Notes: generated from the sequence alone by a model not told the origin. A stretch of DNA of 64,000 bases from Patescibacteria group bacterium (GCA_036726225.1 DAIMCS010000001.1:188885-252884), one strand, 5' to 3'; positions 2,112-61,072 are shown, counted from the stretch's first letter. Program-made: numbers and translations.

Positions 2112-4391
2112 TTACGATTCGTCTTCCTGTATTCCATATTCCGCCTTCTCGTCGGGCGGCACCACACCATACACCTCCCTGGGTTTTGCGCCTTCACCCG
2201 GGCCAATTACCCCTTTGGCTTCCAAAATATCCAGCAGCCTTGCCGCGCGGGCGTAACCCACCCGCAAGCGCCTTTGAAGCAACGAAGCCGAAGCCTTGCC
2301 CGCGCGCTTAACTTCTTCCATAGCTTCTTGCAGGAGCGGATCGTCATCGCCGTCACCGCTGTCCCCTTCTAACCCCGGGATTCCCAGGGCCCGCTTTGGT
2401 TTTTCTAAAATTTCTTCGTTGTAAATGACTGCGCCGGTCTGCTGCTTAAAGAAATCCACAACTTTTTTAACTTCCTTTTCACCAATGTAAGCGCCCTGGA
2501 CTCTTTTGGGTTTGTTAAATTCTGCCGAGGTGTAAAGCATATCGCCGTTGCCCAAAAGTTTTTCAGCTCCCGAGGAGTCTAAAATTGTGCGGCTGTCTAT
2601 TTGGCTGGCGACGGCAAATGCAATTCTGGAAGTGATGTTGGCTTTAATAAGTCCGGTAATAATATCTACAGACGGCCTTTGGGTGGCCAGCACTAAATGG
2701 ATGCCCACAGCGCGCGCCATTTGGGCCAAACGCACAATTGCGGCTTCCACTTCTGCCTGGGCCACGGACATAAGGTCTGCAAGTTCGTCTACCAAAATTA
2801 CAATGTAAGGCATAGACAAACCGGATGCTTCGTTGTACTCCACAATATTCCTTTTACCGACTTCGGACAAAAGCTTATAGCGGCGGTCCATTTCCGCCAC
2901 TGCCCATTTGAGCGCATTAACTGCTTTTTCATTTTCCGTTACCACAGGCGTAAGCAAATGCGGAATGCCGTTATACGGTGTCATTTCCACGCGCTTTGGG
3001 TCAATAACAATAAACTTAACGTCCTGCGGCGTGTTCCTGTAAAGCAAGCCAATGAACAAGCTGTTAATAGCCACGCTTTTGCCCGTGCCGGTGGCGCCGG
3101 CAATAAGCATATGCGGCATTCTGGCCAAATCTACTATAATTGGATGTCCGGCCACGTCCCTGCCCAAAGCCAAAGCCAGTTTGCTTTTGTAATCCACAAA
3201 TTCAGCTGTTTGCATAACCTCGCGTAAGCGCACAATAGCCGTAGATTTGTTAGGCACTTCTATGCCGACTAAGGCTTTACCCGGAATTGGCAGCTCCATA
3301 CGGATGCTGTGAGCGGCAAGGGCAAGCGCAAGGTCGTTTTGCAAAGCCGCAATTTGCGAAAGCTTAACTCCCACTGCCGGGCGCAAAGTGTACTGGGTAA
3401 CTGTTGGTCCCACGTTAACTTCCCCCATTTCCACCTCTATCCCAAAATCCGCCAAAGTCTTTTTTATAACCGCGACATTCACTTCTATGTTGCCGCTGTC
3501 CACGGCGGTTTGGTTGTCGTCGAGCAAATCAAACTGCGGCAGCTTCCAGTCTTTGCGGTCTTGCACTGTCATGGCATCTAACTGCGGAGACTTAATGGTT
3601 TTTGTCTGTATGGTTTGCGAACTGGTTTTACTTTCCGCTTCATTAGCAACTTTTGGATTTTTCTCTAACACCTTTTCTTCCAAAAACCCGCTTTGGCCCA
3701 TAGCGTTAATTTTCAAAACCGGCTGCTCCAAATTATGGACAACCGGCGCCTCTGCTTCTTTCGGCTTTTCTTGTCCGTCTTCTTTCTTCTCCCAGAGTGA
3801 CTTAAGCGACACGTCAAAAATAATTAACAGGCTAATTACAATGAGCGCCACTAAAATTAAGCTGCCCGCCCAAAAACCCAAAAACGAAAACAGCGGACTG
3901 GAAACTGCGGCGCCTAAATAGCCGCCACCCCGGCCTTCTGATGCAATTTCAAAAGCGCTTAAGCCCGAATTTAAATAAAAAATATGAATAAGTCCGCCCA
4001 GGCCGACGCAAAGCAAAACCGCGCCCAAATAAATCCTTAAATAAAAACTGTGGTGCTTGCTCTCTTCATTTAAATCCTGTTTGTACAACGACACAGCAAC
4101 GCTTAACAAAATTAAAGGCACTAAGTAGGCCATTAGCCCGGACGCCCAGGAGAGGCCTTGGAAAAATTGCCGGCCGAGTGAGCCCGCCAGCCCTGCCAAA
4201 CTTAAAAGTGAAACTAAAGCCAAAGCAGTAAACACCACCACCATTATGCCGCGTTTGGTTTCAGGGGAGAGGTCGAGTTTGGGCTTGTTCCTTTTCTTCT
4301 CAGCTTTTTCCAGCTTTTCTAATTTTTCCAATTTTTGCAGCTTTTTTTTGTATCTGTCCATGAATAATTTCCTTATAGTTTCCCTCCCCAA
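2112..4391 (-). CDS. ftsK: DNA translocase FtsK/SpoIIIE
   Basis: 759 aa; N-terminal TM helices, Walker A GATGTGKSV, C-terminal winged-helix gamma domain (LLQEAMEEV...RLRVGYARAARLLD). Confidence 0.9.
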   Translation of the reverse strand: MGRETIRKLFMDRYKKKLQKLEKLEKLEKAEKKRNKPKLDLSPETKRGIMVVVFTALALVSLLSLAGLAGSLGRQFFQGLSWASGLMAYLVPLILLSVAVSLYKQDLNEESKHHSFYLRIYLGAVLLCVGLGGLIHIFYLNSGLSAFEIASEGRGGGYLGAAVSSPLFSFLGFWAGSLILVALIVISLLIIFDVSLKSLWEKKEDGQEKPKEAEAPVVHNLEQPVLKINAMGQSGFLEEKVLEKNPKVANEAESKTSSQTIQTKTIKSPQLDAMTVQDRKDWKLPQFDLLDDNQTAVDSGNIEVNVAVIKKTLADFGIEVEMGEVNVGPTVTQYTLRPAVGVKLSQIAALQNDLALALAAHSIRMELPIPGKALVGIEVPNKSTAIVRLREVMQTAEFVDYKSKLALALGRDVAGHPIIVDLARMPHMLIAGATGTGKSVAINSLFIGLLYRNTPQDVKFIVIDPKRVEMTPYNGIPHLLTPVVTENEKAVNALKWAVAEMDRRYKLLSEVGKRNIVEYNEASGLSMPYIVILVDELADLMSVAQAEVEAAIVRLAQMARAVGIHLVLATQRPSVDIITGLIKANITSRIAFAVASQIDSRTILDSSGAEKLLGNGDMLYTSAEFNKPKRVQGAYIGEKEVKKVVDFFKQQTGAVIYNEEILEKPKRALGIPGLEGDSGDGDDDPLLQEAMEEVKRAGKASASLLQRRLRVGYARAARLLDILEAKGVIGPGEGAKPREVYGVVPPDEKAEYGIQEDES

Positions 4392-4535
4392 GTTTGGGGA
4401 GGGCCGGGGAGGGGTTGATTGATCCCTCTAATTCTCGCTGCCTTATTTTAACATTTTTTTATCCAAACTAAAACCCCGCTTTTTGGCGGGGTTTTTGTAT
4501 CTGCGTAATCTGTCAGTTATCTGTGTATCTGTGGT

Positions 4536-5102
4536 CTACATTCCTTTTACTCTGACCTTCTTGGTCTTGGCTTTGGCTGCTTTGGGTACAACAATTGTCA
4601 GAATTCCGTCTTTCAGGTCTGCTTCTATGTTTTCGCTGTCTATATCTATTGGGATAATTACCGAGCGGGAAAAATTTCCCCAGTAGCATTCCTGGTAAAA
4701 ATAATCGTCAGTCGTTACGCTTTCTTCCTTTCTGCGGCTGCCTTTTACGGTAAGCATATCGTTGGCAACCGTAATATCTATGTCTTCGGGCTTAACTCCC
4801 GCGATTGTAGATTTGATAATCACGTTATCCTTAGTCTGGTACATATCTATGTTAAGCTGGCCTTCAAAATCACTAAGCCATTCCTCGTTGCTTTCCTTAG
4901 CTGTCTGCCTTACTGGCTGGCTTTCCGCCTCTTCTACAATTTCCAAATCTTGATCCTGCTCTTCAACAACGTCCGGAGCAAGCTCTTCCGGTTCTAAATC
5001 CTGTTGGCTGACTTGTGAAACACTAACAGGCTGCGGAGCTTCGTCGGTAACGCTTCCCCCCATAATTTTTCCAAAAAATGATGCTCGTTCTTTCTTAGCC
5101 AT
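4536..5102 (-). CDS. Hsp20/alpha-crystallin family small heat-shock protein
   Basis: 188 aa; alpha-crystallin domain (DMYQTKDNVIIKSTIAGVKPEDIDITV...GILTIVVPK) with acidic N-terminal extension. Confidence 0.8.
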   Translation of the reverse strand: MAKKERASFFGKIMGGSVTDEAPQPVSVSQVSQQDLEPEELAPDVVEEQDQDLEIVEEAESQPVRQTAKESNEEWLSDFEGQLNIDMYQTKDNVIIKSTIAGVKPEDIDITVANDMLTVKGSRRKEESVTTDDYFYQECYWGNFSRSVIIPIDIDSENIEADLKDGILTIVVPKAAKAKTKKVRVKGM

Positions 5103-10475: not shown

Positions 10476-10509
10476 CCGCCGAGATCCGTTGATCTCGGCG
10501 GTTTTTTTA
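10476..10509 (+). terminator. Rho-independent terminator
   Basis: ccgccgagatccgttgatctcggcgg hairpin followed by T7. Confidence 0.8.
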
Positions 10510-11205
10510 AACTGATAAATTTTGGCAAAAACTTAAACGGTGAATAGCGGAAAGGCCGTTTTGCAAAATGAGTTTTCGATGCTGCTGTGTAGCATAACCT
10601 TTGTGCTGTTTGAGATTGTAGATTGGATAAGTTTCATGCAACTTTTGCATTAAACTATCTCTATAAACTTTTGCGATAATTGATGCAGAGGCGATTGAAA
10701 GAATTTTATTGTCACCGTCTACAACTGCTTCTTGTTCAATTGTTAAGCCGGGAATTTTAAACTTGCCGTCAACAACTACCATGACTTTGTCATTCCCGCG
10801 AAAGCGGGAATCTTTTTTAAGATCCCCGATCGGGTCGGGGATGACATAAAAAGATAGCAGATTCTCAACGGCTTTTCTCATTGCAAGCAAGCTTGCGTTG
10901 TGAATATTTATTCTGTCAATCTCTTCAGGTGAAACTTCCGCAATGCTCCAGGCAATTGCATTCTCTTTTATAATTGGCGCTAATTCTTCTCTTTTTTCAG
11001 CCGAAAGCAGTTTGCTGTCCTTAATTCCACAAGACTTTATAACTTTATAACTTTCTACTTTTAACTTGTCGTTTGCATCCGATATAGGCAAAATCACCGC
11101 GGATGCGACGACAGGCCCGGCCAAACATCCCCTGCCGACTTCGTCACAGCCGATGATGTGGGAAAAACCTTGTGATATTTTTTTGTTTTCGTATTTGTTG
11201 TTCAT
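10507..11205 (-). CDS. rnhB: Ribonuclease HII with in-frame palindromic-element insertion
   Basis: 232 aa; GCDEVGRGCLAGPVV and HKGYATQQH motifs; 10789-10845 palindromic element encodes ...DPIGDLKKDSRFRGND... Confidence 0.85.
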   Translation of the reverse strand: MNNKYENKKISQGFSHIIGCDEVGRGCLAGPVVASAVILPISDANDKLKVESYKVIKSCGIKDSKLLSAEKREELAPIIKENAIAWSIAEVSPEEIDRINIHNASLLAMRKAVENLLSFYVIPDPIGDLKKDSRFRGNDKVMVVVDGKFKIPGLTIEQEAVVDGDNKILSIASASIIAKVYRDSLMQKLHETYPIYNLKQHKGYATQQHRKLILQNGLSAIHRLSFCQNLSV

Positions 11206-14957: not shown

Positions 14958-15073
14958 CTCCCAAAAATACTGATGAGCATTCACAAAGGTATTTTTGGGA
15001 AAGACGAGCGCCCGCGGAGAGCGAAAGTCCCGATTTTTAAATCGGGACGTGAGCTCGGAGCAAGGCGCGAGGA
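14958..15073 (+). ncRNA. Structured tRNA-leader element (copy A) immediately upstream of tRNA-Pro
   Basis: cccaaaaat-hairpin-atttttggg module, then GGAGAGCGAAAGTCCCGAT-loop-ATCGGGAC-GTGAGCTCGGA enclosed by outer stem gcgcc/ggcgc. Confidence 0.5.
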
Positions 15074-15147
15074 CGGGATGTAGTATACCGGTAGTACACA
15101 CGCTTCGGGTGCGTGGAGACTGGGTTCGATTCCCAGCATCCCGACCA
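15074..15147 (+). tRNA. tRNA-Pro(CGG)
   Basis: CGGGATG acceptor/CATCCCG, anticodon loop TTCGGGT, T-arm GGTTCGATTCC, encoded CCA. Confidence 0.8.
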
Positions 15148-21206: not shown

Positions 21207-21458
21207 ATGTTTTATTTCTACATTTTAAAATGCAAAGACGGCACACTGTACTGCGGCAGCGCAAAGGATCTTAACGAAAGATTAAAAAAGCACAATGACG
21301 GGATTGGTTCTAAATATGTCAGAAGCCGCGGGGGCGGGAGGATTGTTTACAGCGAGAGATTCAAATCTTGGGGCAAAACTTTAAGCCGTGAAGCGAAAGT
21401 AAAAAAATTATCTAGATTACAAAAAATTGCTTTAATAAAAACAAAACCCTCCGTTTAG
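21207..21458 (+). CDS. GIY-YIG nuclease family protein
   Basis: 83 aa; YFYILKCKDGTLYCGSAKDLNERLKKHN motif. Confidence 0.75.
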   Translation: MFYFYILKCKDGTLYCGSAKDLNERLKKHNDGIGSKYVRSRGGGRIVYSERFKSWGKTLSREAKVKKLSRLQKIALIKTKPSV

Positions 21459-24110: not shown

Positions 24111-24119
24111 AAATAAATA

Positions 24120-24200
24120 TACAAATTAACAAATGTACAAATGAAACCAATAACAACAAATTGGTGACTATCAGTTTCATTTGTACATCAGTATATTTGT
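24120..24200. repeat. Inverted-repeat element ACAAATGTACAAATGAAAC...GTTTCATTTGTACAT (copy 1 of 2)
   Basis: Second copy at 48590-48690 with same arms and ATAACAACAAAT core. Confidence 0.6.
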
Positions 24201-24351
24201 ATCATAATTACCATTTGAAAGCAACTGCCTTCGGGTGCTACAATGGTTTAGCTACACGCCGCCGTTAAATTATTTTTTCATCCAAAAAGATGCATAATTT
24301 TGGGGCAATTATACTTTTTATAGTAAAATTAAGACCAATTAATTTAATAAG

Positions 24352-28511: not shown

Positions 28512-28711
28512 AATCACCCTTGATAAAAACTAAAAATTTGGCTATACTGGTTAGCTGTTATAATTAAAAAGTAATTCATTACTTTTTATCCCCGCGGAGG
28601 CGGGGATCCAAATAATAGATTCCGGATAAATTTTCTAACCTCATTTTTAACCTCTCTGTCCCTTCGGGACATCTCTCCATGAATTGGAGAGAATAATAAA
28701 GATTAAAATCT

Positions 28712-31537: not shown

Positions 31538-31652
31538 TCTTTTTTTTCAATAGTCCTTGTCATTGCGAGTGCAGCCGAAGCAATCTAATCCAAGCAATAA
31601 AAGATTGCCACGTCGGCCGTCCGCCTTAGGCGGACTGGCCTCCTCGCAATGA
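31538..31652. repeat. Long hairpin element with GTCATTGCGAG...CTCGCAATGAC termini
   Basis: Approx. 100-nt imperfect palindrome downstream of pyrC. Confidence 0.55.
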
Positions 31653-31656
31653 CAAA

Positions 31657-32916
31657 TTAATGGCTATAAACCTTCCCGGCAATAATGGTGTATTTCACCC
31701 TTCCCGGAAAAGCCATGCCTTCAAATGGCGACCAAGCGCATTTGGTTTTTAATTTGTCGGCGGTGATCGTAATTGGTTCGTTGGGATTGATTACTGTAAG
31801 GGATCCAATATAACCTTTTTCAATTTTCCCAAAACCTTTACCGCATAGCGGCGGTAAAAATTCATTTACAAATTTTCCCGGATTATAAGCACAAACGCGC
31901 GCAATATCTTGAGGCATAAAAGCGTGCTCCTGCATAAGCCAAGTCGTAAAAGACCCGTAAGTGTCCAAATGCGGCACACCCGAAATGCCTTTTAGCTTTT
32001 CTTCGCGCGTATGTGGTGCGTGGTCAGTGGCTAAATAATCTATATCGCCACGCTTTAAAGCCGCTATCATTTCCAGACGATCCTCTTTGTTCCTAAGCGG
32101 GGGATTCATTTGCAGCAACTTATGATTCCCATCATTTAACATTGAGTCGTCAAAATACAAATGGTGGGGCGTTACTTCACAAGTAACTTTTACGCCTCTT
32201 TTTTTTGCTTCGACGATCTTAGGCAAACCTTCTTTGGTAGAATAGTGGCAAAGCTTGCCTACAAGATTATATTTTTCTATCAAATGCAGTGCAAAATCCG
32301 TAGCTGTAATTTCAGCGGCAGCCGGCCTTTGCTGTTCGTGCGTTGGCGCTGATTTATTAGCTTCCAAAATTTCCGGATCCTCACAATGGAAACTTACATT
32401 TTGACCGGCGTACTTAGAAATAACTTTTTCAAGTTCTGCGGATGACGAAAAAAATAAATCTCCCACAGACGGGCCCATATAAACTTTGTATGGCACTTTT
32501 TTCTTTAAAGGATTGGTATTAGGGCCAATTCCGGCATACAAAATTATGTGCACTTTAGATTCACTACCAAGCTTGGCCTTTTCTACGTATTTTTTATCAT
32601 CCGTCGGCGCAACCGGATTGTTAGGCATATCGGCAAAAAATGTAACACCGCCTGAAACTGCTGCCTCCGATGCGCTTTTAAAATCTTCTTTGTAATTTTG
32701 CGTGCCACTAGCATCTTGCCTGGCGTGCACGTGGATGTCGCCAAAACCCGGGAAAATAAGTTCATTATTTAAAACTAAATCCGCCGCGCCAGTAGCCGGA
32801 CCAACGCTCTCAATTAAACCAGTTTCGCTGTTAATTTCGACTCTCGCAACCGATTCAGAATCGTGGTTTATAATTTTTCCTTCGATTGAAAACATTTTCA
32901 TAAAATTATGTGTCAT
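31657..32916 (-). CDS. pyrC: Dihydroorotase-like amidohydrolase
   Basis: 419 aa; metal ligands HVHAR...ATDHAPH; first gene of pyr cluster. Confidence 0.7.
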   Translation of the reverse strand: MTHNFMKMFSIEGKIINHDSESVARVEINSETGLIESVGPATGAADLVLNNELIFPGFGDIHVHARQDASGTQNYKEDFKSASEAAVSGGVTFFADMPNNPVAPTDDKKYVEKAKLGSESKVHIILYAGIGPNTNPLKKKVPYKVYMGPSVGDLFFSSSAELEKVISKYAGQNVSFHCEDPEILEANKSAPTHEQQRPAAAEITATDFALHLIEKYNLVGKLCHYSTKEGLPKIVEAKKRGVKVTCEVTPHHLYFDDSMLNDGNHKLLQMNPPLRNKEDRLEMIAALKRGDIDYLATDHAPHTREEKLKGISGVPHLDTYGSFTTWLMQEHAFMPQDIARVCAYNPGKFVNEFLPPLCGKGFGKIEKGYIGSLTVINPNEPITITADKLKTKCAWSPFEGMAFPGRVKYTIIAGKVYSH

Positions 32917-32918
32917 TC

Positions 32919-33008
32919 CGCCTGCCTGCGGTAGGCAGGGAAAATTTACATTGTTATTAAATTTATCCGGAATCTATTTAATTGGATTCCCGCCTTCGCG
33001 GGAATGAC
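32919..33008. repeat. Composite palindromic element (GTCATTCC...GGGAATGAC family) in pyrC-pyrD spacer
   Basis: gtcattccgcctgcctgcggtaggcagg...aaatttatccggaatcta...ggattcccgccttcgcgggaatgac. Confidence 0.7.
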
Positions 33009-34099: not shown

Positions 34100-34165
34100 T
34101 TATCCATTCCCGCGAAAGCGGGAATCTATTAACTGGATTCCCGCCTACGCGGGGATGGAATGGCT
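34100..34165. repeat. Composite palindromic element in pyrD-pyrF spacer
   Basis: ccattcccgcgaaagcgggaat...ggattcccgcctacgcggggatgg. Confidence 0.7.
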
Positions 34166-34961
34166 AACGATATTTATTTATCTCATCTCTAAGCTTCTTA
34201 GCTTCTTCTTTAGGATTTTCTGCAAAAATAATTCCCCGGGAGGAGTTGATGATCATTCCCAATTTTTTACTATTAAGTCCGGCCTTAACCGCAGCTTCAA
34301 CATCGCCGCCTTGCACGCCAAGTCCTGGCACTAAAAATGTCATATCGCCGACAAGCGATCTAATTATTTGCATCTCCTCTGGGTAAGTTGCACCCACCAC
34401 CAACATACAGTTGTTATTTTTATTCCATTCTTTGCTGACTCTTTCCGCAACAACCTGCCAAACTTTTTTACCGCCGGATTCTAAATCTTGCAATTCGCCT
34501 GCACCGGGATTAGACGTCCGGCAAAGAATAATCGAGCCTTTATCAGCCCGGTCTAAAAAGGGCTTTAAAGCTTCCTTACCCAGGTACGGATGCAAGGTTA
34601 CGGCGTCAAACCCGAAATAATCAAAAATTGAGAACACATAACCGTTATTCGTATTACCAATGTCCGCGCGCTTGGCATCACAAATCGTAAAAATATCCGG
34701 CTGCTTCTCCCGCAAATAATCCATAGTTAACTTTAACTCCGAAAGTCCCTTATCCCCGCGGGCTTCGTAAAAAGCTGAATTTGGTTTAAAAGCCGCTGCG
34801 AATTCCGCAGTCTCATCAATTATCCATTTGTTAAATTCAAACTGCGGGAATTCCATTGCCTTAAATTTCTCCGGCAATTTTGAAAAATCGGGATCAAGCC
34901 CCACGCAAACCAAAGAGTTTATTTTTTCCGCGCGCTGGTTGTATTTGTCAATTGGGTTCAT
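34164..34961 (-). CDS. pyrF: Orotidine 5'-phosphate decarboxylase (type 2)
   Basis: 265 aa; VGLDP...K...D motif. Confidence 0.8.
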   Translation of the reverse strand: MNPIDKYNQRAEKINSLVCVGLDPDFSKLPEKFKAMEFPQFEFNKWIIDETAEFAAAFKPNSAFYEARGDKGLSELKLTMDYLREKQPDIFTICDAKRADIGNTNNGYVFSIFDYFGFDAVTLHPYLGKEALKPFLDRADKGSIILCRTSNPGAGELQDLESGGKKVWQVVAERVSKEWNKNNNCMLVVGATYPEEMQIIRSLVGDMTFLVPGLGVQGGDVEAAVKAGLNSKKLGMIINSSRGIIFAENPKEEAKKLRDEINKYR

Positions 34962-35599
34962 ATAAGGCCCTTTGCTTGTAAATATTTCTTACCGTGGCCA
35001 ACCTTAACATTAATTGGTATCCCCGAAGCGCACAAAGGACAATCTTTCTCTTCATAAGTTTCAGCCGGAATCTCACACAAAGCGTTAAAATGAAAGCCTA
35101 AGGTTTGGGAGGTTATCTCCTTAGGCACACGGTTAACTATAACGCTAAGCCCCTGGATATGTCCGCCAAATTCTTTTACTGCGTCTATCATTTTGTGTAT
35201 AGACAGTCCTGTGGCAATTGTGTCCTCAATAATTAGGACCTTTTTCCCTTTAATCAACTCATCATAGCCGCGCTTGAAAACCAAAGGGCCTTCGTCGGTC
35301 TTGTCCGCATAAACACTCAATACTTCTTTACCCTGCATTTTAGAAAGATGTTGTGCGGTTAAATGGCCTAAAATTACAGCACCAACTACCGGAGCGGCGA
35401 CAACCTCAACATCCAAATCTTTATTTGTCTGGGCCAAAAGTTTAGCTATTTCTTCTGTTTCGCTCGGATGGGTGAGCAGCCTGTCTTTATTTACATAAAT
35501 AGACATATGCCTGCCCGATGTCCCGACAAAATGGCTATCCGTAAGCACCGCCTCGGTTTTTTTTAAAATTTCTAAAATATTGCTCATATTTATTGTCAT
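34958..35599 (-). CDS. pyrE: Orotate phosphoribosyltransferase
   Basis: 213 aa; PRPP-binding VLIIEDTIATG; overlaps pyrF by 4 nt. Confidence 0.8.
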   Translation of the reverse strand: MTINMSNILEILKKTEAVLTDSHFVGTSGRHMSIYVNKDRLLTHPSETEEIAKLLAQTNKDLDVEVVAAPVVGAVILGHLTAQHLSKMQGKEVLSVYADKTDEGPLVFKRGYDELIKGKKVLIIEDTIATGLSIHKMIDAVKEFGGHIQGLSVIVNRVPKEITSQTLGFHFNALCEIPAETYEEKDCPLCASGIPINVKVGHGKKYLQAKGLI

Positions 35600-35681
35600 T
35601 CCGGAAAATTTTTGTTGACATAAAATTTATCCGGAATCTATTTTCTGGATCCCGGATCAAGTCCGGGATGACACAAATTGA
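35585..35681. repeat. Composite palindromic element in pyrE-prs spacer
   Basis: gtcattccggaaaa...taaaatttatccggaatcta...ggatcccggatcaagtccgggatgac. Confidence 0.7.
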
Positions 35682-37504: not shown

Positions 37505-37685
37505 ATCCCAAAAATGCCTCCGGCATTTTCGGGAACCCTCAATGAAATCCAAACCGCAAAAACGAGTAGCGCAGCTCCGACGTTTCAGTCGGAGCGAGCA
37601 CGCGTTTTTGTGGAAGAGGAGTTCGTGATGGAGAGCGAGAATCCCGATATTAATCGGGATGAAAGCTCGGAAACACGAACGACTA
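37505..37685 (+). ncRNA. Structured tRNA-leader element (copy B) upstream of tRNA-Phe
   Basis: cccaaaaat hairpin, internal caaaaacg-hairpin-cgtttttg module, GGAGAGCGAGAATCCCGAT-ATTA-ATCGGGATGAAAGCTCGGA core, outer stem gttcgtg/cacgaac. Confidence 0.55.
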
Positions 37686-37760
37686 GCCTCGGTAGCTCAT
37701 TGGTAGAGCGCTGCCCTGAAGAGGCAGGCGTAGTCAGTTCGATTCTGACCCGAGGCACCA
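37686..37760 (+). tRNA. tRNA-Phe(GAA)
   Basis: GCCTCGGTAGCTCATTGGTAGAGCG CTGCC CTGAAGA GGCAG ... GTTCGATTC ... CCGAGGCACCA. Confidence 0.85.
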
Positions 37761-37837: not shown

Positions 37838-38016
37838 TTCCCAAAAATGCTAATAGCATTTTTGGGAACCCTCAATGAAATCCAAACCGCAAAAACGAGT
37901 AGCGCAGCTCCGACGTTTCAGTCGGAGCGAGCACGCGTTTTTGTGGAAGAGGAACAACTGCGGAGGGCGAGAGTCCCGATTGAAGATCGGGACGAAAGCC
38001 CGGAGCAAGTTGTGAC
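37838..38016 (+). ncRNA. Structured tRNA-leader element (copy C) upstream of tRNA-Gly; shares an identical approx. 85-nt segment with copy B
   Basis: ...GGAGGGCGAGAGTCCCGAT-TGAAG-ATCGGGACGAAAGCCCGGA core, outer stem acaact/agttgt. Confidence 0.55.
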
Positions 38017-38090
38017 GCGGCTATGGTTCAATGGTAGAACTTCTCCTTGCCATGGAGAGGATAGGGGTTCGATTCCCCTTAGCCGCTCCA
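38017..38090 (+). tRNA. tRNA-Gly(GCC)
   Basis: GCGGCTATGGTTCAATGGTAGAAC TCTCC TTGCCAT GGAGA ... GGTTCGATTCCCC TTAGCCGCTCCA. Confidence 0.85.
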
Positions 38091-41204: not shown

Positions 41205-41396
41205 CATCCCAAAAACGCGTGCTCTCCCGACAAAAGTCGGGATGCGCTCCACGTTTTTGGGAGGTCTATATAACAAATCCTCAGCTCAAAAAAGGGCTCT
41301 CAAAAATGCAATGCATTTTTGGGAAAGAGGAGTTCGTGACGCAGAGCGTAAATTCCGACGTTAGTCGGAATGCAAGCTCACAGGCACGAACGACGA
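41205..41396 (+). ncRNA. Structured tRNA-leader element (copy E, two cccaaaaa/tttttggg modules) upstream of tRNA-Leu(TAA)
   Basis: ...GCAGAGCGTAAATTCCGAC-GTTA-GTCGGAATGCAAGCTCACAGG core with compensatory changes in the hairpin relative to copies A-C; outer stem gttcgtg/cacgaac. Confidence 0.55.
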
Positions 41397-41483
41397 GCCT
41401 GGGTGGTGGAACTGGCATACACTACAGACTTAAGATCTGTCGCCCGCAAGGGATTGAGGGTTCGACTCCCTCCCCAGGCACCA
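41397..41483 (+). tRNA. tRNA-Leu(TAA)
   Basis: GCCTGGGTGGTGGAACTGG...ACAGA CTTAAGA TCTGT...long variable arm...GGTTCGACTCC...CCCAGGCACCA. Confidence 0.85.
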
Positions 41484-41846: not shown

Positions 41847-41867
41847 ATGTCCTAAAGCTTTACAAAA

Positions 41868-42035
41868 ACCATTTGACAAGCTAAAAGCTTTGTCGTAAAT
41901 TATGTGTACTATTAATTTTTGAAGGAGTTGGATAGAAAAAAAGACCCACACGACATCTACAACCAAAAACAAGCAAGTCAACTCAATGGCTCAGTTTGGC
42001 GTAAACAAATTCTTTAAGGGTTTGTTTTTTTATTT
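41868..42035 (+). promoter_or_regulatory. Conserved cis-element copy 1: promoter (TTGACA-17-TAAATT), conserved leader, intrinsic terminator upstream of GNAT gene
   Basis: TTGACA 41873-78, TAAATT 41896-901, aaggagTTG 41922-30, terminator aaacaaattctttaagggtttgtttttttat about 42003-42031; paralog at 42666-42832. Confidence 0.6.
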
Positions 42036-42154
42036 GCCACACAGGCTGGCCAAAAGCATTGACAAAAATTCAAAAAATCTATAAAATAAGCGGTTAGACT
42101 TTTTTCTTCCGCCAATGTTCATCAATTTTTGGTGACTGGTGGCGGAGGGAAAAA

Positions 42155-42574: not shown

Positions 42575-42665
42575 CCACCAAGGAAAAGAGTGTTTGGACA
42601 TCCACAAACACTCTTTCCTCCCATCCTGCTAAAAAACCTTCTCTGCTAATAAAATTTAAGGAAAA

Positions 42666-42832
42666 AATATTTGACAAACAATTAGCTTTACTGTAAATTA
42701 TGTTTAATATTAATTTTTTAAGGAGTTGGAAAGAATAGAACACTCGTCCCTTTTTAACCAAAACCGACAAAGTCAAGTCAATGGCTTAGTTCAACGTTAA
42801 CAAATTCCTAATGAGTTTGTTTTTTTATTATA
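42666..42832 (+). promoter_or_regulatory. Conserved cis-element copy 2 immediately upstream of hss (terminator ends about 25 nt before hss start codon)
   Basis: TTGACA 42671-76, TAAATT 42694-99, aaggagTTG 42720-28, short ORF 42726-42800, terminator aacaaattcctaatgagtttgtttttttat. Confidence 0.6.
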
Positions 42833-42853
42833 AAAATTTTAAATCAACAAAAT

Positions 42854-48584: not shown

Positions 48585-48589
48585 ACCAT

Positions 48590-48690
48590 ACAAATATACA
48601 AATGGACAAATGATGCTGATAACAACAAATCTAAATCCATAAATCCGTAGTTATTTGTTTCATTTGTGCATTTGTTAATTTGTATTTATG
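48590..48690. repeat. Inverted-repeat element ACAAATGGACAAATGA...TTCATTTGTGCATTTG (copy 2)
   Basis: Paralog of 24120-24200. Confidence 0.6.
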
Positions 48691-53680: not shown

Positions 53681-53744
53681 CAGATTAACTAATAACTGGT
53701 AATTAATAACTTATAACGGTTACTAGTTATAAATTAATTGTTAT

Positions 53745-54500
53745 ATGTTATACATCGTAGCCACCCCAATTGGAAACCTGGGAGACATTACTTTGCGGGC
53801 CATTGAAACTTTAAAGGCCTGCGCTTTTGTTATTGCTGAAAATCCGGGATACAGCAGAAGGTTGTTACAACATATAGACAGCCTTTCTTCCAATACCATT
53901 CCCGCGAAAGCGGGAATCCAGATGTCGATGTCTGGATCCCCGATCAGGTCGGGGATGGAAAACAAATTAGCCAATAAAGAGATAGTCCAATTTGCAGAAC
54001 ACAACGAACAGCAGGTTGTTAAAGATTTAACACGCCGATTGGGAAAAGCAGACGGGGCTTTAATTACCGACGCCGGCACTCCGGGAATTTCCGACCCGGG
54101 CTTTAGGCTAGTACGTGAATGCGTTAAAGAAAATATCCAGGTTATTCCCATCCCGGGAGCCAATGCTGCCACGGTCGCGCTTTCTGCCTCCGGACTTCCG
54201 ACTGACAAATTTTTATTTTTAGGCTTTTTGCAAAAAACCGCGGCCAAGACAGTGGAAGCGTTACAATCTGCAGCCGATGCAGAGGCAACTGCAATATTTT
54301 ACGAATCACCCGAAAGAATTTTTAAAACTTTGGGCTATATAAATAATGCTTTCCCTACGTCGCAGGTGGTAATTGGGCGCGAGCTTACTAAAATCCACGA
54401 AGAATTTATTCGCGGGACTCCGGACTCGGTGATGGCAGATTTAAAAAAACGAGCGTCTATAAAAGGCGAGCTCACTGTTCTGGTCAGTTTCAAATCCTAA
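53745..54500 (+). CDS. rsmI: 16S rRNA (cytidine1402-2'-O)-methyltransferase RsmI with in-frame palindromic-element insertion
   Basis: MLYIVATPIGNLGDITLRAIETL; insertion 53895-53957 encodes ...TIPAKAGIQMSMSGSPIRSGMEN... Confidence 0.8.
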   Translation: MLYIVATPIGNLGDITLRAIETLKACAFVIAENPGYSRRLLQHIDSLSSNTIPAKAGIQMSMSGSPIRSGMENKLANKEIVQFAEHNEQQVVKDLTRRLGKADGALITDAGTPGISDPGFRLVRECVKENIQVIPIPGANAATVALSASGLPTDKFLFLGFLQKTAAKTVEALQSAADAEATAIFYESPERIFKTLGYINNAFPTSQVVIGRELTKIHEEFIRGTPDSVMADLKKRASIKGELTVLVSFKS

Positions 54501-57203: not shown

Positions 57204-59840
57204 ATGCGCGTTTACAACTATAAATTCCAAAAAGGCAATTCCAACAACTCTAAATTTAAGCTAAGGAAAAATTCCTGGTTTAAAAGATGGGACGGCAGAA
57301 AAATTTTTACCTGGGCTTTCAGGATTTTTGCTTTAGGGGTACTTTTCGTGGCGGTTTTGTTTTTGTACTATGCTAAAGATTTGCCGGATCCAAACAAATT
57401 AATAGACAGAATTGTACCCGAATCCACCAAAATTTTTGCCAGGGACGGCGAATTGCTTTACGAAATTCACGGCGAGTTCAAGCGCGACCAGGTAAACTTG
57501 GACGAAATCTCCACCTATTTAAAAAACGCCACGGTTGCAATTGAAGATAAAGATTTTTACAAGCACGGCGGCATATCGTTAACCGGTATGGCCAGGGCAG
57601 TAATTGTGGATGTCAGAAACTTAAACAAATCCCAAGGCGGCAGCACCATTACGCAACAGTTTGTAAAAAAAGCAATTTTAACGGATGACAAATCCTGGGA
57701 CCGAAAAATCCGCGAAATTATTTTGGCAATTTCCATTGACTCGCGTTTTTCCAAAGACGAAATTTTAAAACTTTACTTAAACGAAATTCCCTACGGCCGC
57801 AACACTTACGGGATTGAAGCGGCCAGCCAAAGTTATTTTGGCAAAAAGGCCAAAGATTTAAGCTTAGCCGAAAGCGCTTATTTGGCTTCTATACCGCAAG
57901 CGCCCACCCGCTACAATCCGCTTGGTCCTAACAGGGCGGCTTTAGATAACCGCAAAAATACTGTGCTTTTAGCAATGAAGCAACAGGGCTACATTACTGA
58001 AGATGAACAAAAAACGGCTTCTGAAGAAAAAGTGGAATTTTTGCCGCTAAGCCACGGCATTAAAGCGCCGCATTTCACTCTTTGGGTCCAGGACTACCTG
58101 GCCAATAAGTATGGCGAAAAAACCTTAGAAGAAGGCGGGCTAAAAGTTTACACCACCTTAAATTTCAAAATGCAGGAAATTGCCGAAGCCGCTGTAAAAA
58201 ACGGCGTAGAAAAAACCGCGACCAAATATAACGTGGGCAATGCGGCGCTGGTTGCCATAGACCCCAAAACCGGACAAATTTTAGCTATGGTTGGAGGCAA
58301 AGATTATTTTGGGGACGTCCTGCCCGAAGGCTGTAAGCCCGGAAAAAATTGCGTGTTTGAACCAAACGTGAATGTAGCGGTTTCGCAAAGGCAACCCGGC
58401 TCCAGTTTTAAGCCGTATGTTTACGCCACTGCATTTAAAAAAGAATTTAAATATTCTCCGGCCTCAATGCTGGTGGATGTAGTTACCAATTTCGGCACCT
58501 TTGGCGGCAAAGACTACATTCCGCGCAACTACAATGAACAATCTTACGGGCCGCTGTCTATGAGAAAAGCCCTGGCGGGAAGTTTAAACGTGCCCGCAGT
58601 AAAAACTTTAGCCTTAGTCGGCGTGGGCAGCGCTACACAAACCGCCCACGACTTGGGCATTACCAGCCCGCTTGCTGACTGCGGCCTTTCCTTGGTGTTG
58701 GGCGGCTGCGAAGTAAGGCTGGTTGACCACGTAGCTGCGTTTTCGGTTATTGCCAATGGGGGAGTTAAGAATGAAAAAACGCCGATTTTAAAAATTGAGG
58801 ACAAAGACGGAAAAATTATTGAAGAATTCAAAAGCGACCCTAAAGAAGTTTTAGACCCGGAGGCCGCTTACGAGTTAATTAGCATAATGACAGACAACGA
58901 CGCCCGAAGTTTTGTTTTCGGCGCCAACTCGCCGCTAATTTTGCCCGGGTGGGTGGTGGCTGCCAAAACCGGCACCACACAAAACTGGCACGACGGCTGG
59001 GCCTTAGGCTTTACGCCCTCTTTGGCTGCCGGCGTGTGGGCAGGCAACAACGACGGCACCCTGCTTAAAAAAGGCGCGGACGGCGTGTTCGTGGCGGCGC
59101 CAATTTGGAATGAATTTATGAAAAACGCCCTCAAAGACACCCCGGCAGAAAACTTTAGCCGGCCTTCCGGCATTCAACAGGTGGTTGTAGATGAAGTTTC
59201 AGGAAAACTTCCCACCAATGCCACGCCCAATACTAAAACCGAAATTTTTGCCAGCTATTCAGTGCCCGAGAGCTACGACAATGTGCATATTAGAGCCGCT
59301 ATAGATATTTTAACCGGGCTGCCCGCAGACGCCCTCACCCCACCGGAGAGAATAAGCTACCAGCTTTTTAACGTGCTGCACAGCGAAAAACCAGAAAATC
59401 CAAGCTGGGAACAGCCGGTGATAGCCTGGGCACTTGCCCATGGTTACAGCTATCCAAGTGCGGAAGTCTCGGGCGGCGGAGCAAGCCCGTCTGCGCCCAA
59501 CACCGGCCAGGGCCCCAACGTAAGTTTTGAACAGCCCGTGGAAGGCTCGGTAATATTCTCTTTGCCAATAAACGTGAGTGTGGCTGCGGCCGGGCCCAAC
59601 CCGGTGGCAAGAGTAGATTTGTCAGTAGACGGCGAATTTGTAAAAAGCCTAACCCAGGCACCTTACACCTTTAGCTTAAACAAAACCTATAGCAACGGTC
59701 GCCACGTTTTGGCTGCCAAAGCAGTCGACACTTTAGGCAACAGTTCTGACACCAGCATTAATATAAGTTTTGAAATAAATTCCGGCCCTCCCCCCGGTTT
59801 ACCGTTCCCTGGTGATTTTAATACAACCACTCCGCAGTAA
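57204..59840 (+). CDS. Penicillin-binding protein 1A (bifunctional transglycosylase/transpeptidase) with C-terminal extension
   Basis: GT51 motifs EDKDFYKHGG, GGSTITQQ; transpeptidase SSFKP, KTGTT. Confidence 0.9.
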   Translation: MRVYNYKFQKGNSNNSKFKLRKNSWFKRWDGRKIFTWAFRIFALGVLFVAVLFLYYAKDLPDPNKLIDRIVPESTKIFARDGELLYEIHGEFKRDQVNLDEISTYLKNATVAIEDKDFYKHGGISLTGMARAVIVDVRNLNKSQGGSTITQQFVKKAILTDDKSWDRKIREIILAISIDSRFSKDEILKLYLNEIPYGRNTYGIEAASQSYFGKKAKDLSLAESAYLASIPQAPTRYNPLGPNRAALDNRKNTVLLAMKQQGYITEDEQKTASEEKVEFLPLSHGIKAPHFTLWVQDYLANKYGEKTLEEGGLKVYTTLNFKMQEIAEAAVKNGVEKTATKYNVGNAALVAIDPKTGQILAMVGGKDYFGDVLPEGCKPGKNCVFEPNVNVAVSQRQPGSSFKPYVYATAFKKEFKYSPASMLVDVVTNFGTFGGKDYIPRNYNEQSYGPLSMRKALAGSLNVPAVKTLALVGVGSATQTAHDLGITSPLADCGLSLVLGGCEVRLVDHVAAFSVIANGGVKNEKTPILKIEDKDGKIIEEFKSDPKEVLDPEAAYELISIMTDNDARSFVFGANSPLILPGWVVAAKTGTTQNWHDGWALGFTPSLAAGVWAGNNDGTLLKKGADGVFVAAPIWNEFMKNALKDTPAENFSRPSGIQQVVVDEVSGKLPTNATPNTKTEIFASYSVPESYDNVHIRAAIDILTGLPADALTPPERISYQLFNVLHSEKPENPSWEQPVIAWALAHGYSYPSAEVSGGGASPSAPNTGQGPNVSFEQPVEGSVIFSLPINVSVAAAGPNPVARVDLSVDGEFVKSLTQAPYTFSLNKTYSNGRHVLAAKAVDTLGNSSDTSINISFEINSGPPPGLPFPGDFNTTTPQ

Positions 59841-61072
59841 TGTTTATTCTAATACTCCTCGCAACTCTAATACTAACCCCGGCCTATACGGTAAGGTTTA
59901 ACTTTTTTGGTATGCCCGCAAACTTACTTATGATGTGGGTGTTTTTAGTTTGGGTTGTCTTTTTTATTTGGTTAATGGTAAAAAATCAGCTATCACAATT
60001 TTTAGAGTCCGTTAAAAATTGTCATAGAAAAATTTTAGTTTTTACCGGATTATTTTTCCTGTCAGGATTAATTAGCCTCTTTGTAAACGGCTTTAGCATT
60101 GCAAAGTTTGGGCAATTCATTGTTTTGTTCCTGCAGCCGATTTTGTTATTTTTTATTGCCCGATATATTTTTGAGCTATCCCCACAAACCAAGACCCGTT
60201 TACTGTTTACTGTTTACTGTTTACTTGCCTTTGCCGGCTTATATGCGATTCTGCAATACCTAACCCTCATCGGCCTTCCGGAAATCTACTGGGGCAACGC
60301 CAACGAACCCAAACGCGCATTAAGCTTTTTTGCCCATCCCAACTTTTACGCCCTTTGGTCTGCGCCCCTGCTTGCGCTTTTGATTCCCGATCTTTTTCAA
60401 AATCTTAAATCTTCAATCTTAAATCTTAAATCTTTTTTTTGGCTTTTAGGCGCTCTTGGCCTGCTGTTTTCTTTTTCCCGTGCAGGCTGGCTGGGACTAG
60501 GTGCGGCTATGGGTATTTACCTGCTAATTGCCGGCGACAAAAAAATTCGCAAACTTGCTCTTGCAGCTGTTATTGTTATAGTTATTGTTATAGTCTCAAT
60601 TCCGAACTTGCGATGGCGCTTTGTTTTACCTTTCTATGGTGAAAAATCAGCCGTCTCCAGATTAAGTTTATGGAATACGGGAGCTAAAGCTATAAAAGAA
60701 TCGCCCATTTTAGGTTTGGGATTAACCGGATTTAACAACAACTGGCAACGGCTCAATACCGACCCCAACCTGGACACCCACAACTTCCCGCATAATATAT
60801 TTTTAAATTTTTGGGTGGAGACCGGACTTCTGGGCTTAATTAGCTTTTTAGGATTAGCCTCGGTTTTAATTTATCGCGGCCTGCGTCGCTCTGTCATCCC
60901 GGACTCCGATCCGGGATCCAGAATTTTAGATTCTCGCTTTCGCGGGAATGACACTATCAAGTTAAGCGTCGCCCTTTTCCTCATCTGCTTAATTTTTCAA
61001 GGACTAATTGATAACCCTTATTTTAAAAACGATTTAGCCTTGGTGTTTTGGATGGTACTATCTTTGTTTTAA
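59840..61072 (+). CDS. O-antigen ligase-like (Wzy_C) membrane protein, second paralog, with in-frame palindromic-element insertion
   Basis: FSRAGWLGLGAAMG motif; insertion 60893-60952 encodes ...VIPDSDPGSRILDSRFRGNDTI... Confidence 0.65.
   Translation: MFILILLATLILTPAYTVRFNFFGMPANLLMMWVFLVWVVFFIWLMVKNQLSQFLESVKNCHRKILVFTGLFFLSGLISLFVNGFSIAKFGQFIVLFLQPILLFFIARYIFELSPQTKTRLLFTVYCLLAFAGLYAILQYLTLIGLPEIYWGNANEPKRALSFFAHPNFYALWSAPLLALLIPDLFQNLKSSILNLKSFFWLLGALGLLFSFSRAGWLGLGAAMGIYLLIAGDKKIRKLALAAVIVIVIVIVSIPNLRWRFVLPFYGEKSAVSRLSLWNTGAKAIKESPILGLGLTGFNNNWQRLNTDPNLDTHNFPHNIFLNFWVETGLLGLISFLGLASVLIYRGLRRSVIPDSDPGSRILDSRFRGNDTIKLSVALFLICLIFQGLIDNPYFKNDLALVFWMVLSLF

Follow-up and report, generated by a model that had tools for sequence, protein, structure and literature searches.

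How palindromic repeats can lie in frame inside housekeeping genes without breaking them is the question raised by a 64,000-nt stretch of DNA from a Patescibacteria group bacterium (GCA_036726225.1 DAIMCS010000001.1:188885-252884; hereafter the window). A first-pass annotation had described elements of a GTCAT...ATGAC family inside the genes for RNase HII, the methyltransferase RsmI and a Wzy-like membrane protein, and had read them as insertions that add surface peptides to intact proteins. Our analysis confirmed that one dispersed family of palindromic repeats accounts for all three sites; identical modules also occur in intergenic DNA. We consider it quite probable that they are doublets of CGTC/TGTC-tagged repetitive extragenic palindromic (REP) hairpins, namely non-autonomous elements processed as single-stranded DNA (ssDNA), which would be passively translated where they are intragenic.

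Palindromic doublets within and between genes

At all three annotated sites, sequence and translation agree with the elements and peptides that had been quoted, the RsmI copy spanning 53895-53959. Doublet A (10789-10845, 57 bp), inside the RNase HII gene, consists of GTCATTCCCGCGAAAGCGGGAATC-TTTTTTAA-GATCCCCGATCGGGTCGGGGATGAC. Its left half (10789-10812) forms a hairpin on the + strand, GTC-ATTCCCGC-GAAA-GCGGGAAT-C, its right half (10821-10845) forms one on the - strand, GTC-ATCCCCGA-CCCGA-TCGGGGAT-C, and the - strand reading of the whole is VIPDPIGDLKKDSRFRGND. Doublet B (53895-53959, 65 bp), inside the RsmI gene, has the same hairpin types as A, with the ends CCAT/ATGG, tags of the form xCC instead of GTC (ACCAT... 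/ ...ATGGA) and a third small hairpin in its spacer; its + strand reading is TIPAKAGIQMSMSGSPIRSGM. Doublet C (60893-60952, 60 bp), inside the Wzy/O-antigen-ligase-like gene, runs from GTCATCCCGGACTCCGATCCGGGATC to GATTCTCGCTTTCGCGGGAATGAC and reads as VIPDSDPGSRILDSRFRGND. Its left hairpin on the + strand, ATCCCGGA-CTCCGA-TCCGGGAT, is of a third type, and its right hairpin on the - strand is of type 1 with one mismatch.

Four further complete copies are intergenic. They fill four successive gaps of a co-directional gene row comprising an amidohydrolase (pyrC-like) gene, pyrD, pyrF, pyrE and prs. Doublet H (31559-31653, 95 bp) lies 4 nt past the stop codon of the amidohydrolase gene and belongs to the GTCATTGCGAG...CTCGCAATGAC family, and doublet D (32912-33008, 97 bp), between the amidohydrolase gene and pyrD, has a right half of type 1 and a left half whose stem is interrupted and whose loop is long and AT-rich. 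Doublet E (34103-34159, 57 bp), between pyrD and pyrF, carries xCC tags and is able to fold as one long hairpin because both of its halves are of type 1, and doublet F (35595-35672, 78 bp), between pyrE and prs, has a left half with a long AT-rich loop. A partial copy, G (28588-28634), lies between infB and rbfA and is missing the outer GTCAT tags. Repeat searches, reading and two detectors thus gave eight copies, and the coding-versus-intergenic tally over the 64-kb window is three intragenic (A, B and C), four intergenic and one partial.

The complete members share one plan, which on the + strand is (T)GTC-AT-stem-loop-stem-AT-C and a tail, followed across a short spacer by its mirror image. 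Within a doublet (57-65 bp in A-C), the hairpins are inverted relative to each other, their (T)GTCAT tags outermost and their tails inward; therefore each DNA strand has one correctly oriented hairpin at its 5' end. Stems of 8 bp starting with A-T and loops of 4-6 nt were found by the detector in 10 halves, the exceptions being the left halves of D and F, and H. At least four hairpin types occur in free combination (types 1 and 2 in A and B, 3 and 1 in C, 1 and 1 in E, 4 and 3 in F). In A, C, D and F, the stems of both halves follow TGTC, and H begins with GTCAT, whereas B and E have A/T-CC instead. The tail is C-CAG after the left and right halves of B, the left half of C and the right halves of E and F, C-CAA after the right half of D, and C-TTT, C-TTA or C-TAT in A and the left half of E.

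These features occur far more often than expected by chance. The 16-mer hairpin has 7 matches in the window at up to 3 mismatches against 0.56 expected, and the 19-mer hairpin has 4 against 0.01. A detector combining termini and fold returned 9 candidates, 7 of them real, compared with ~0.1 in simulated sequence, and the strict detector found 0 doublets in a negative control of ~800 kb of mostly non-CPR loci (CPR, Candidate Phyla Radiation). This strict hairpin detector is blind to long-stem families (GTCATTGCGAGG..., GTCATTCTGAG...), and therefore doublet counts in other loci are lower bounds. Folded as ssDNA, doublets A, B and C form two hairpins on either strand (z-scores relative to shuffles between -3.0 and -5.2; -4.9/-5.2 for A). 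An Rfam scan returned only tRNAs and no family for the elements. A rule by which coding copies would have lengths in multiples of three was rejected, coding copies being 57, 65 and 60 bp long and intergenic ones 57, 78, 97 and 95 bp.

The first ATG of the amidohydrolase ORF (open reading frame; 31657-32916, -) and that of the pyrE ORF (34958-35599, -) are the ATG of the terminus ATGAC, at 32914-32916 in doublet D and 35597-35599 in doublet F on the - strand; the true starts are therefore uncertain. The amidohydrolase ORF has a further ATG five codons downstream, and the termini of D and F may or may not contribute start codons.

Relationship to known repeat families

The closest published counterparts belong to two reports. 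Chenal et al. (2025; Nat Commun 16:2388, PMC11893778) described the Neisseria Transformation Sequence (NTS), CGTCATTCCCGCGMAVGCGGGAATCYRG, which holds the classical dRS3 repeat, and the left half of doublet A, GTCATTCCCGCGAAAGCGGGAATC, is exactly the 24-nt NTS core (GTCATTCCCGCGMAVGCGGGAATC). Their degenerate pattern for Ssn-related motifs (SRM), HGTCWYN(0-2)YYVSBRHN(0-5)WNVSBRGN(0-2)RNCYNB, matches the window at 10788-10815 (+), 35645-35673 (-) and 60892-60921 (+), and the other halves are off by one or two positions. SsnA, a GIY-YIG nuclease of 94 aa with a single domain, binds only the ssDNA form of the hairpin and cleaves a few nucleotides upstream. Cleavage is sensitive to the three bases preceding the palindrome and binding to the C that follows; ssn genes (GIY-YIG, cd10448) often have the motif at their flanks, the NTS/Ssn system modulates transformation in N. 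meningitidis, and the arrangement NTS-ssnA-NTS was likened to an insertion sequence (PMC11893778). Most window copies retain both the preceding nucleotides and the trailing C, and NTS-ssnA-NTS cassettes and the window doublets share the tags-outward geometry. The window elements are tight doublets, in contrast to NTS, which occur in large clusters. The words 'in-frame' and 'intragenic' are not in the text of Chenal et al., so in-frame coding insertions were apparently not discussed there.

Di Nocera, De Gregorio & Rocco (2013; BMC Genomics 14:522, PMC3733652) described a CGTC-tagged REP superfamily. Its members have the tag CGTC, TGTC or CCTC, a stem of 8-9 bp from A-T, a loop of 4-5 nt and a CCA-like tail, and are mostly dimers, often heterodimers. 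They lie typically between co-directional genes, right after stop codons, but in-frame intragenic copies are found in several species, where dimers encode 20-30 aa, and intragenic REPs are in excess in replication and repair genes. In that account, CGTC-1 equals dRS3 and RPE-6 of R. conorii (RPE, Rickettsia palindromic element), and CGTC-4 equals RPE-4. The window elements resemble CGTC-1/-2 in the unpaired (C/T)GTC tag, the 8-bp A-T stem, the short tail, the dimeric state, the copies just 3' of genes and the in-frame dimers, and as multicopy inverted dimers they number seven complete doublets and one partial copy per 64 kb against ~0.1 expected. They differ in the xCC tags of B and E, the long AT-rich loops of D and F and the longer imperfect stems of H, and in their host, Patescibacteria/CPR lying outside the five phyla listed in PMC3733652. 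Bar these exceptions, the sequences share each defining feature of the CGTC-tagged REP superfamily and are of the same kind as dRS3/NTS and, by the published equivalence, Rickettsia RPE-4/-6. The link to RPE-4/-6 follows the equivalence given in PMC3733652 and not Rickettsia sequences.

The first-pass annotation had drawn a parallel with Rickettsia palindromic elements and had considered the phenomenon not yet described for this kind of genome. The relationship is probably closer than a parallel, since the halves fall into the superfamily that PMC3733652 equates with RPE-6/RPE-4. Novelty is preserved only in part: we found no report of palindromic elements, RPE or REPIN in CPR, nor of the insert peptide strings, in the literature searched, but the family and its in-frame intragenic dimers were already known from PMC3733652. 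Since the family and its in-frame habit had already been published under three names, the window elements are a known kind in a new phylum, and what appears to be new is CPR as a host phylum. The range of the CGTC-REP / dRS3-NTS / RPE-4/-6 superfamily, with its habit of colonising essential genes in frame, is thereby extended to the Candidate Phyla Radiation, whose genomes are tiny and gene-dense and so leave little non-coding space for a mobile or converting repeat. The finding also joins three literatures on the same DNA, namely those on Rickettsia RPEs, CGTC REPs and the Ssn nuclease system.

Three other systems are instructive by comparison. Classic RPE-1, reportedly described by Ogata et al. 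in 2000 and 2002, is said to be ~100-150 bp long and to encode a conserved peptide. The likeness lies in palindromic repeats that sit in frame within unrelated housekeeping genes and leave them intact, in a host-dependent bacterium with a small genome, at sites that seem fold-compatible (RNase HII and RsmI models) and with inserts absent from orthologs; the window units differ in being 57-65 bp doublets without a conserved peptide. The REPIN-RAYT system, attributed to Bertels & Rainey in 2011, reportedly combines GTAG-tagged REPs with a Y1/HUH (IS200/IS605-like) transposase. Its replicating unit, which the window doublets resemble, consists of two inverted REP hairpins around a short spacer, is reported to depend on one single-copy enzyme that acts in trans on ssDNA hairpins, and forms populations that persist within a lineage; in the window, however, the tag is (C/T)GTC rather than GTAG, the candidate enzyme is GIY-YIG, and most window doublets are heterodimers whose halves fold separately. 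General scans returned no RAYT gene, no search aimed at RAYT having been made. Bacterial miniature inverted-repeat transposable elements, such as the Correia element, are small, non-coding and multicopy with inverted ends and occasional in-frame fusions to ORFs (review PMC10969869). The window elements are likewise small and multicopy with inverted ends (TGTCAT/ATGACA), but are much shorter and have neither target-site duplications nor long IS-derived terminal inverted repeats.

Host genes remain intact around the inserts

All three host ORFs are uninterrupted, as had been claimed. RNase HII (10507-11205, -; 232 aa) covers positions 1-198 of the 199 of the Pfam RNase_HII profile, and RsmI, the 16S rRNA (cytidine1402-2'-O)-methyltransferase (53745-54500, +; 251 aa), covers 1-207 of the 212 of TP_methylase/RsmI; NCBIfam equivalog matches back both assignments. 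The third, a Wzy_C/O-antigen-ligase family membrane protein (59840-61072, +), is a 410-aa ORF (380 aa according to gene callers) with a complete Wzy_C domain at residues 202-337. In RNase HII, the insert comprises residues 122-140, between a helix (93-120) and a strand (141-146) and six residues ahead of the invariant Asp146; the catalytic columns to either side of the insert are invariant. The extra segment of RsmI lies between a helix (34-49) and a strand (79-82), and that of the Wzy-like protein begins at residue 352 and is flanked by two hydrophobic stretches. The stretch SFYVIPDPIGDLK is an example spanning an insert/host junction.

AlphaFold2 models predict both the RNase HII insert and the RsmI insert as coil with a predicted local distance difference test (pLDDT) score <50 (model means 79.6 and 73.9, respectively), which places them in low-confidence coil between conserved elements and agrees with the expected loop location. 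The surface peptides proposed earlier are a prediction based on such models. NCBIfam searches with the host proteins and with the bare insert peptides matched no RPE-type domain model. The insert-bearing RNase HII protein is encoded identically on 17 contigs, of which the two shown come from different samples; it is therefore no assembly artefact.

Doublet B is also spanned by a 168-aa ORF opposite RsmI (53741-54247, -). It is probably spurious and owes its existence in part to the doublet, 5 of whose 6 frames have no stop.

The host loops are variably occupied across orthologs

Ortholog alignment supports the lineage-specific nature of the extra segments, which are absent from solved orthologs, distant Wzy-like homologs and many close orthologs. 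In the alignment with Thermotoga RNase HII, residues ~118-141 of our protein are unmatched, and 40 close homologs (58-73% identity; Doudnabacteria/Patescibacteria by the names of their sources) have 0 to ~60 extra residues at this site. Residues ~46-78 of RsmI are missing from solved orthologs; among 120 close homologs, 55 have a 12-residue loop (proteins of 221-222 aa) and 65 have 18-64 residues there. For the Wzy-like protein, 66 of 121 aligned sequences (120 close homologs and the query) have only xGLKNRxDIxKL at this position and 54 have +10 to +54 residues, and distant representatives mostly have just a few residues. As the segment is variable or absent in orthologs and, in RNase HII and RsmI, modelled as low-confidence coil, the inserts are best described as lineage-variable additions to loops of intact proteins.

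The least expected outcome was variable occupation of the same loop in each of the three host genes. Across the clade, these loops are occupied by CGTC-type doublets of several families and by other palindrome-type inserts, the latter giving peptides such as SPPxxxGG... or PLLxKEGxGEV. One RNase HII ortholog that seemed insert-free (L003, P0002) has a perfect hairpin with a 12-bp stem at the site, TCGGCTAATTCG/CGAATTAGCCGA, in the codons for SANSCELAD (DNA fold -11.6 kcal/mol, z -6.6; peptide SANSCELA). ANS[CRH]EL-like peptides recur at the RNase HII site in several other orthologs, in one of which (P0067) the peptide adjoins a CGTC doublet. The hairpin is a second, untagged palindrome family in the same RNase HII loop. 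On a related contig (L102), the RNase HII gene likewise has a doublet at this site, and a different Wzy-like protein is encoded with an in-frame 72-bp doublet.

Insert presence seems to carry some phylogenetic signal with many changes: Fitch parsimony on neighbour-joining trees gave 25 steps for RsmI against 40 when shuffled, and 22 against 29 for RNase HII. These trees are too weakly resolved to tell one old insertion from many. Insert-bearing sequences also have common flanks (QYIDxL... vs GAWPKE in RsmI, GLR vs GLK in the Wzy-like protein), which could reflect common descent, or the flanks could have arrived with the insert.

A tentative extension, possible but rather doubtful, is that the loops of RNase HII, RsmI and the Wzy-like ligase are recurrent landing pads for hairpin elements in this CPR clade. 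It builds on 120 close homologs per gene, in which the same codon position is empty or holds different CGTC-type doublets or other palindromes; this combination of loops empty in some close homologs and differently occupied in others appears to be new. If true, it would mean site- or structure-directed insertion or conversion on ssDNA by a hairpin-specific enzyme system in CPR, an Ssn-like system in long-term co-evolution with intragenic hairpins, and a REPIN/RAYT-like 'replicator' living largely within the genes of ultra-small genomes. The present data do not distinguish repeated insertion with a site preference from old residents subject to turnover or gene conversion; the variably occupied loops offer a natural test of targeted reinsertion versus vertical persistence with turnover.

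Apparent conservation of DNA rather than peptide

Four of five RNase HII orthologs whose DNA was compared have doublets at the same codon position with the ends GTCAT...ATGAC (one half with CCAT), but with different hairpin sequences (GTCATTCT..., GTCATTGCGAGG..., GTCATTCCGGCC... and one with the exact NTS core on the other strand). In an RsmI ortholog (L130) the left hairpin type is that of the window and the right hairpin is different, and an insert-free RsmI ortholog (L129) has no hairpin. One hairpin module gives unrelated peptides in its two orientations, VIPAKAGIQ versus ...DSRFRGND. Of the 6 frames, 2-5 have no stop in the short doublets, compared with 0-1 in the long intergenic D and H. 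The same ends with changing hairpins and peptides, together with open frames, fit passive read-through of tolerated DNA and not selected peptides. What is conserved would thus be the DNA (tags and hairpin complementarity), the peptides being a probable by-product. For annotators, the family explains the recurrent "VIPAKAGIQ", "SRFRGND", "CHCE..." and "...RNDK" peptides and length variation of CPR proteins.

Hairpin-flanked GIY-YIG ORFs in metagenome and viral contigs

A complete hairpin-ssn-hairpin cassette was found on an unrelated metagenome contig (L112, 2281-2636), where two identical 24-nt NTS cores, GTCATTCCCGCGAAGGCGGGAATC, bracket a 98-aa GIY-YIG ORF (2314-2610, -) with their tags outward. 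The same contig has a second, different GIY-YIG ORF 1.7 kb away (4309-4650). The exact 24-nt core also occurs in at least 120 viral/proviral IMG/VR contigs (L131-L250). Among the 120 such loci listed, inverted neighbouring cores are tags-outward in 20 cases and tags-inward in 3, core gaps cluster at 52-60 nt (doublets) with three at 275-331 nt, and Ssn-type ORFs adjoin the core in five, with the core on both sides in two. The NTS core motif is therefore common in DNA classified as phage or prophage. Some of these contigs hold arrays of the core, with up to 13 copies (e.g. L145).

The only GIY-YIG gene in the window is a single-domain ORF (21207-21458, +; 83 aa; Pfam E 3.5e-17), which makes it a candidate trans-acting nuclease at the level of the superfamily only. 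It lies beside a tRNA and ~6 kb beyond a Mur ligase - Ddl - RNase HII row. In a related contig (L007, 1-67), a GIY-YIG gene is directly upstream of this row.

Origin and maintenance of the doublets

Taken as REP doublets, the elements may be, or may have been, non-autonomous elements; they have the geometry of a cassette that lost its gene and are therefore called non-autonomous derivatives. Copying or conversion would take place at the ssDNA level through a trans-acting hairpin-specific enzyme, for which an Ssn-type GIY-YIG nuclease would be the best candidate, and the doublets could in this way be mobile. The intragenic copies would be survivors of selection, being short, GC-rich and stop-free in 2-5 of 6 frames, and as the loops tolerate ~20 extra residues, the inserts would simply be translated through.

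Several observations weigh against this explanation. No target-site duplication was seen by eye around the seven complete copies and no empty-site allele was seen in a near-identical strain, so that recent mobility is only inferred, and the occupation of the same loops in many lineages could reflect elements that have long been resident, not repeated insertion. Doublets B and E are without the GTC tag, whose importance for cleavage was reported by Chenal et al. No Ssn-type (hairpin-flanked) gene or transposase was identified in the window, where ~20 ORFs were scanned against Pfam. The window GIY-YIG ORF is unsupported as a cognate Ssn: its closest solved relatives are UPF0213 proteins (PDB 1zg2, E 4e-15), no hairpin occurs within 150 nt of it or of 17 metagenome orthologs, and the Ssn-type protein of the metagenome cassette shares 31% identity with it and is much further from UPF0213 structures (E 1e-3). 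Finally, translation of the inserts is a prediction.

Alternatively, the doublets could be domesticated functional DNA sites, next to which, as in Neisseria, a hairpin-specific ssDNase would cut adjoining ssDNA and modulate the recombination of DNA that is incoming or being replicated; intragenic copies would be kept because their position matters on the DNA level. The role of NTS/Ssn in meningococcal transformation (PMC11893778), the occupation of the same loops in three genes in many CPR lineages and the presence of one doublet in each of four successive pyr/prs gaps would all be in keeping with such sites, as would the intragenic REP excess in replication/repair genes described in PMC3733652, RNase HII being one of these. 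We consider domestication unlikely, however: about a quarter to half of the closest orthologs are insert-free at these sites, occupancy differs between genes apparently on one contig, and an Ssn-type gene was not found in the window.

Action mainly as RNA hairpins is less probable still. The elements would then serve as mRNA stabilisers, attenuators or terminators, and coding copies would tune the expression of their host genes. The hairpin on both strands of each doublet and the orientation-specific tag point instead to a strand-symmetric DNA substrate, ribosomes would need to unwind the intragenic hairpins, and neither an Rfam family match nor a T run after the hairpins was found. On the other hand, the hairpins are stable, and the intergenic copies between co-directional genes and right after stops are placed as is typical of REPs according to PMC3733652.

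That the inserted peptides are selected protein modules, conferring a new surface function on the host enzymes, seems very improbable. Although they are in frame, stable across samples and recurrent at the same loops, orthologs with the same DNA ends and hairpin character have wholly different peptides at one site, a single module encodes unrelated peptides depending on its orientation, and the modelled inserts are low-confidence coil that many orthologs do without. An artefact (mis-assembly, pseudogenes or chance-palindromic lineage-specific loops), which the use of metagenome assemblies would advise as a prior caution only, can practically be dismissed, given that 17 contigs and more than one sample yield the identical RNase HII protein, that the ORFs are full length and keep their invariant catalytic columns to either side of the insert, and that identical hairpin modules occur in intergenic DNA, with a large enrichment over chance.

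Other repeats in the window

Four tRNAs, starting at 15074, 37686, 38017 and 41397, are preceded by conserved leaders of ~85 nt, all on the + strand (14978-15078, 37590-37690, 37921-38021 and 41301-41401). The leaders have the layout TTTTTGGGAAAGAGGAG...GGAGAGCGAnAnTCCCGA-loop-TCGGGAnGnAAGC..., with a seemingly compensatory outer stem (GTTCGTG/CACGAAC, CAACTG/AGTTGTG, GCGCCCG/GGCGCG); no Rfam family covers them, and they may be a structured element upstream of tRNAs. AT-rich inverted/direct repeats (ATACAAATnnACAAATGnACAAATGA...) are common to the intergenic stretches 24112-24209 and 48588-48685, each of which has a local palindrome. Two stretches of ~170 bp, 41864-42039 and 42662-42834, are 795 bp apart and ~80% identical. 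Both carry a promoter-like TTGACA...TAAATT stretch and a T-rich end, suggesting a tandem duplication of a small gene and its control region.

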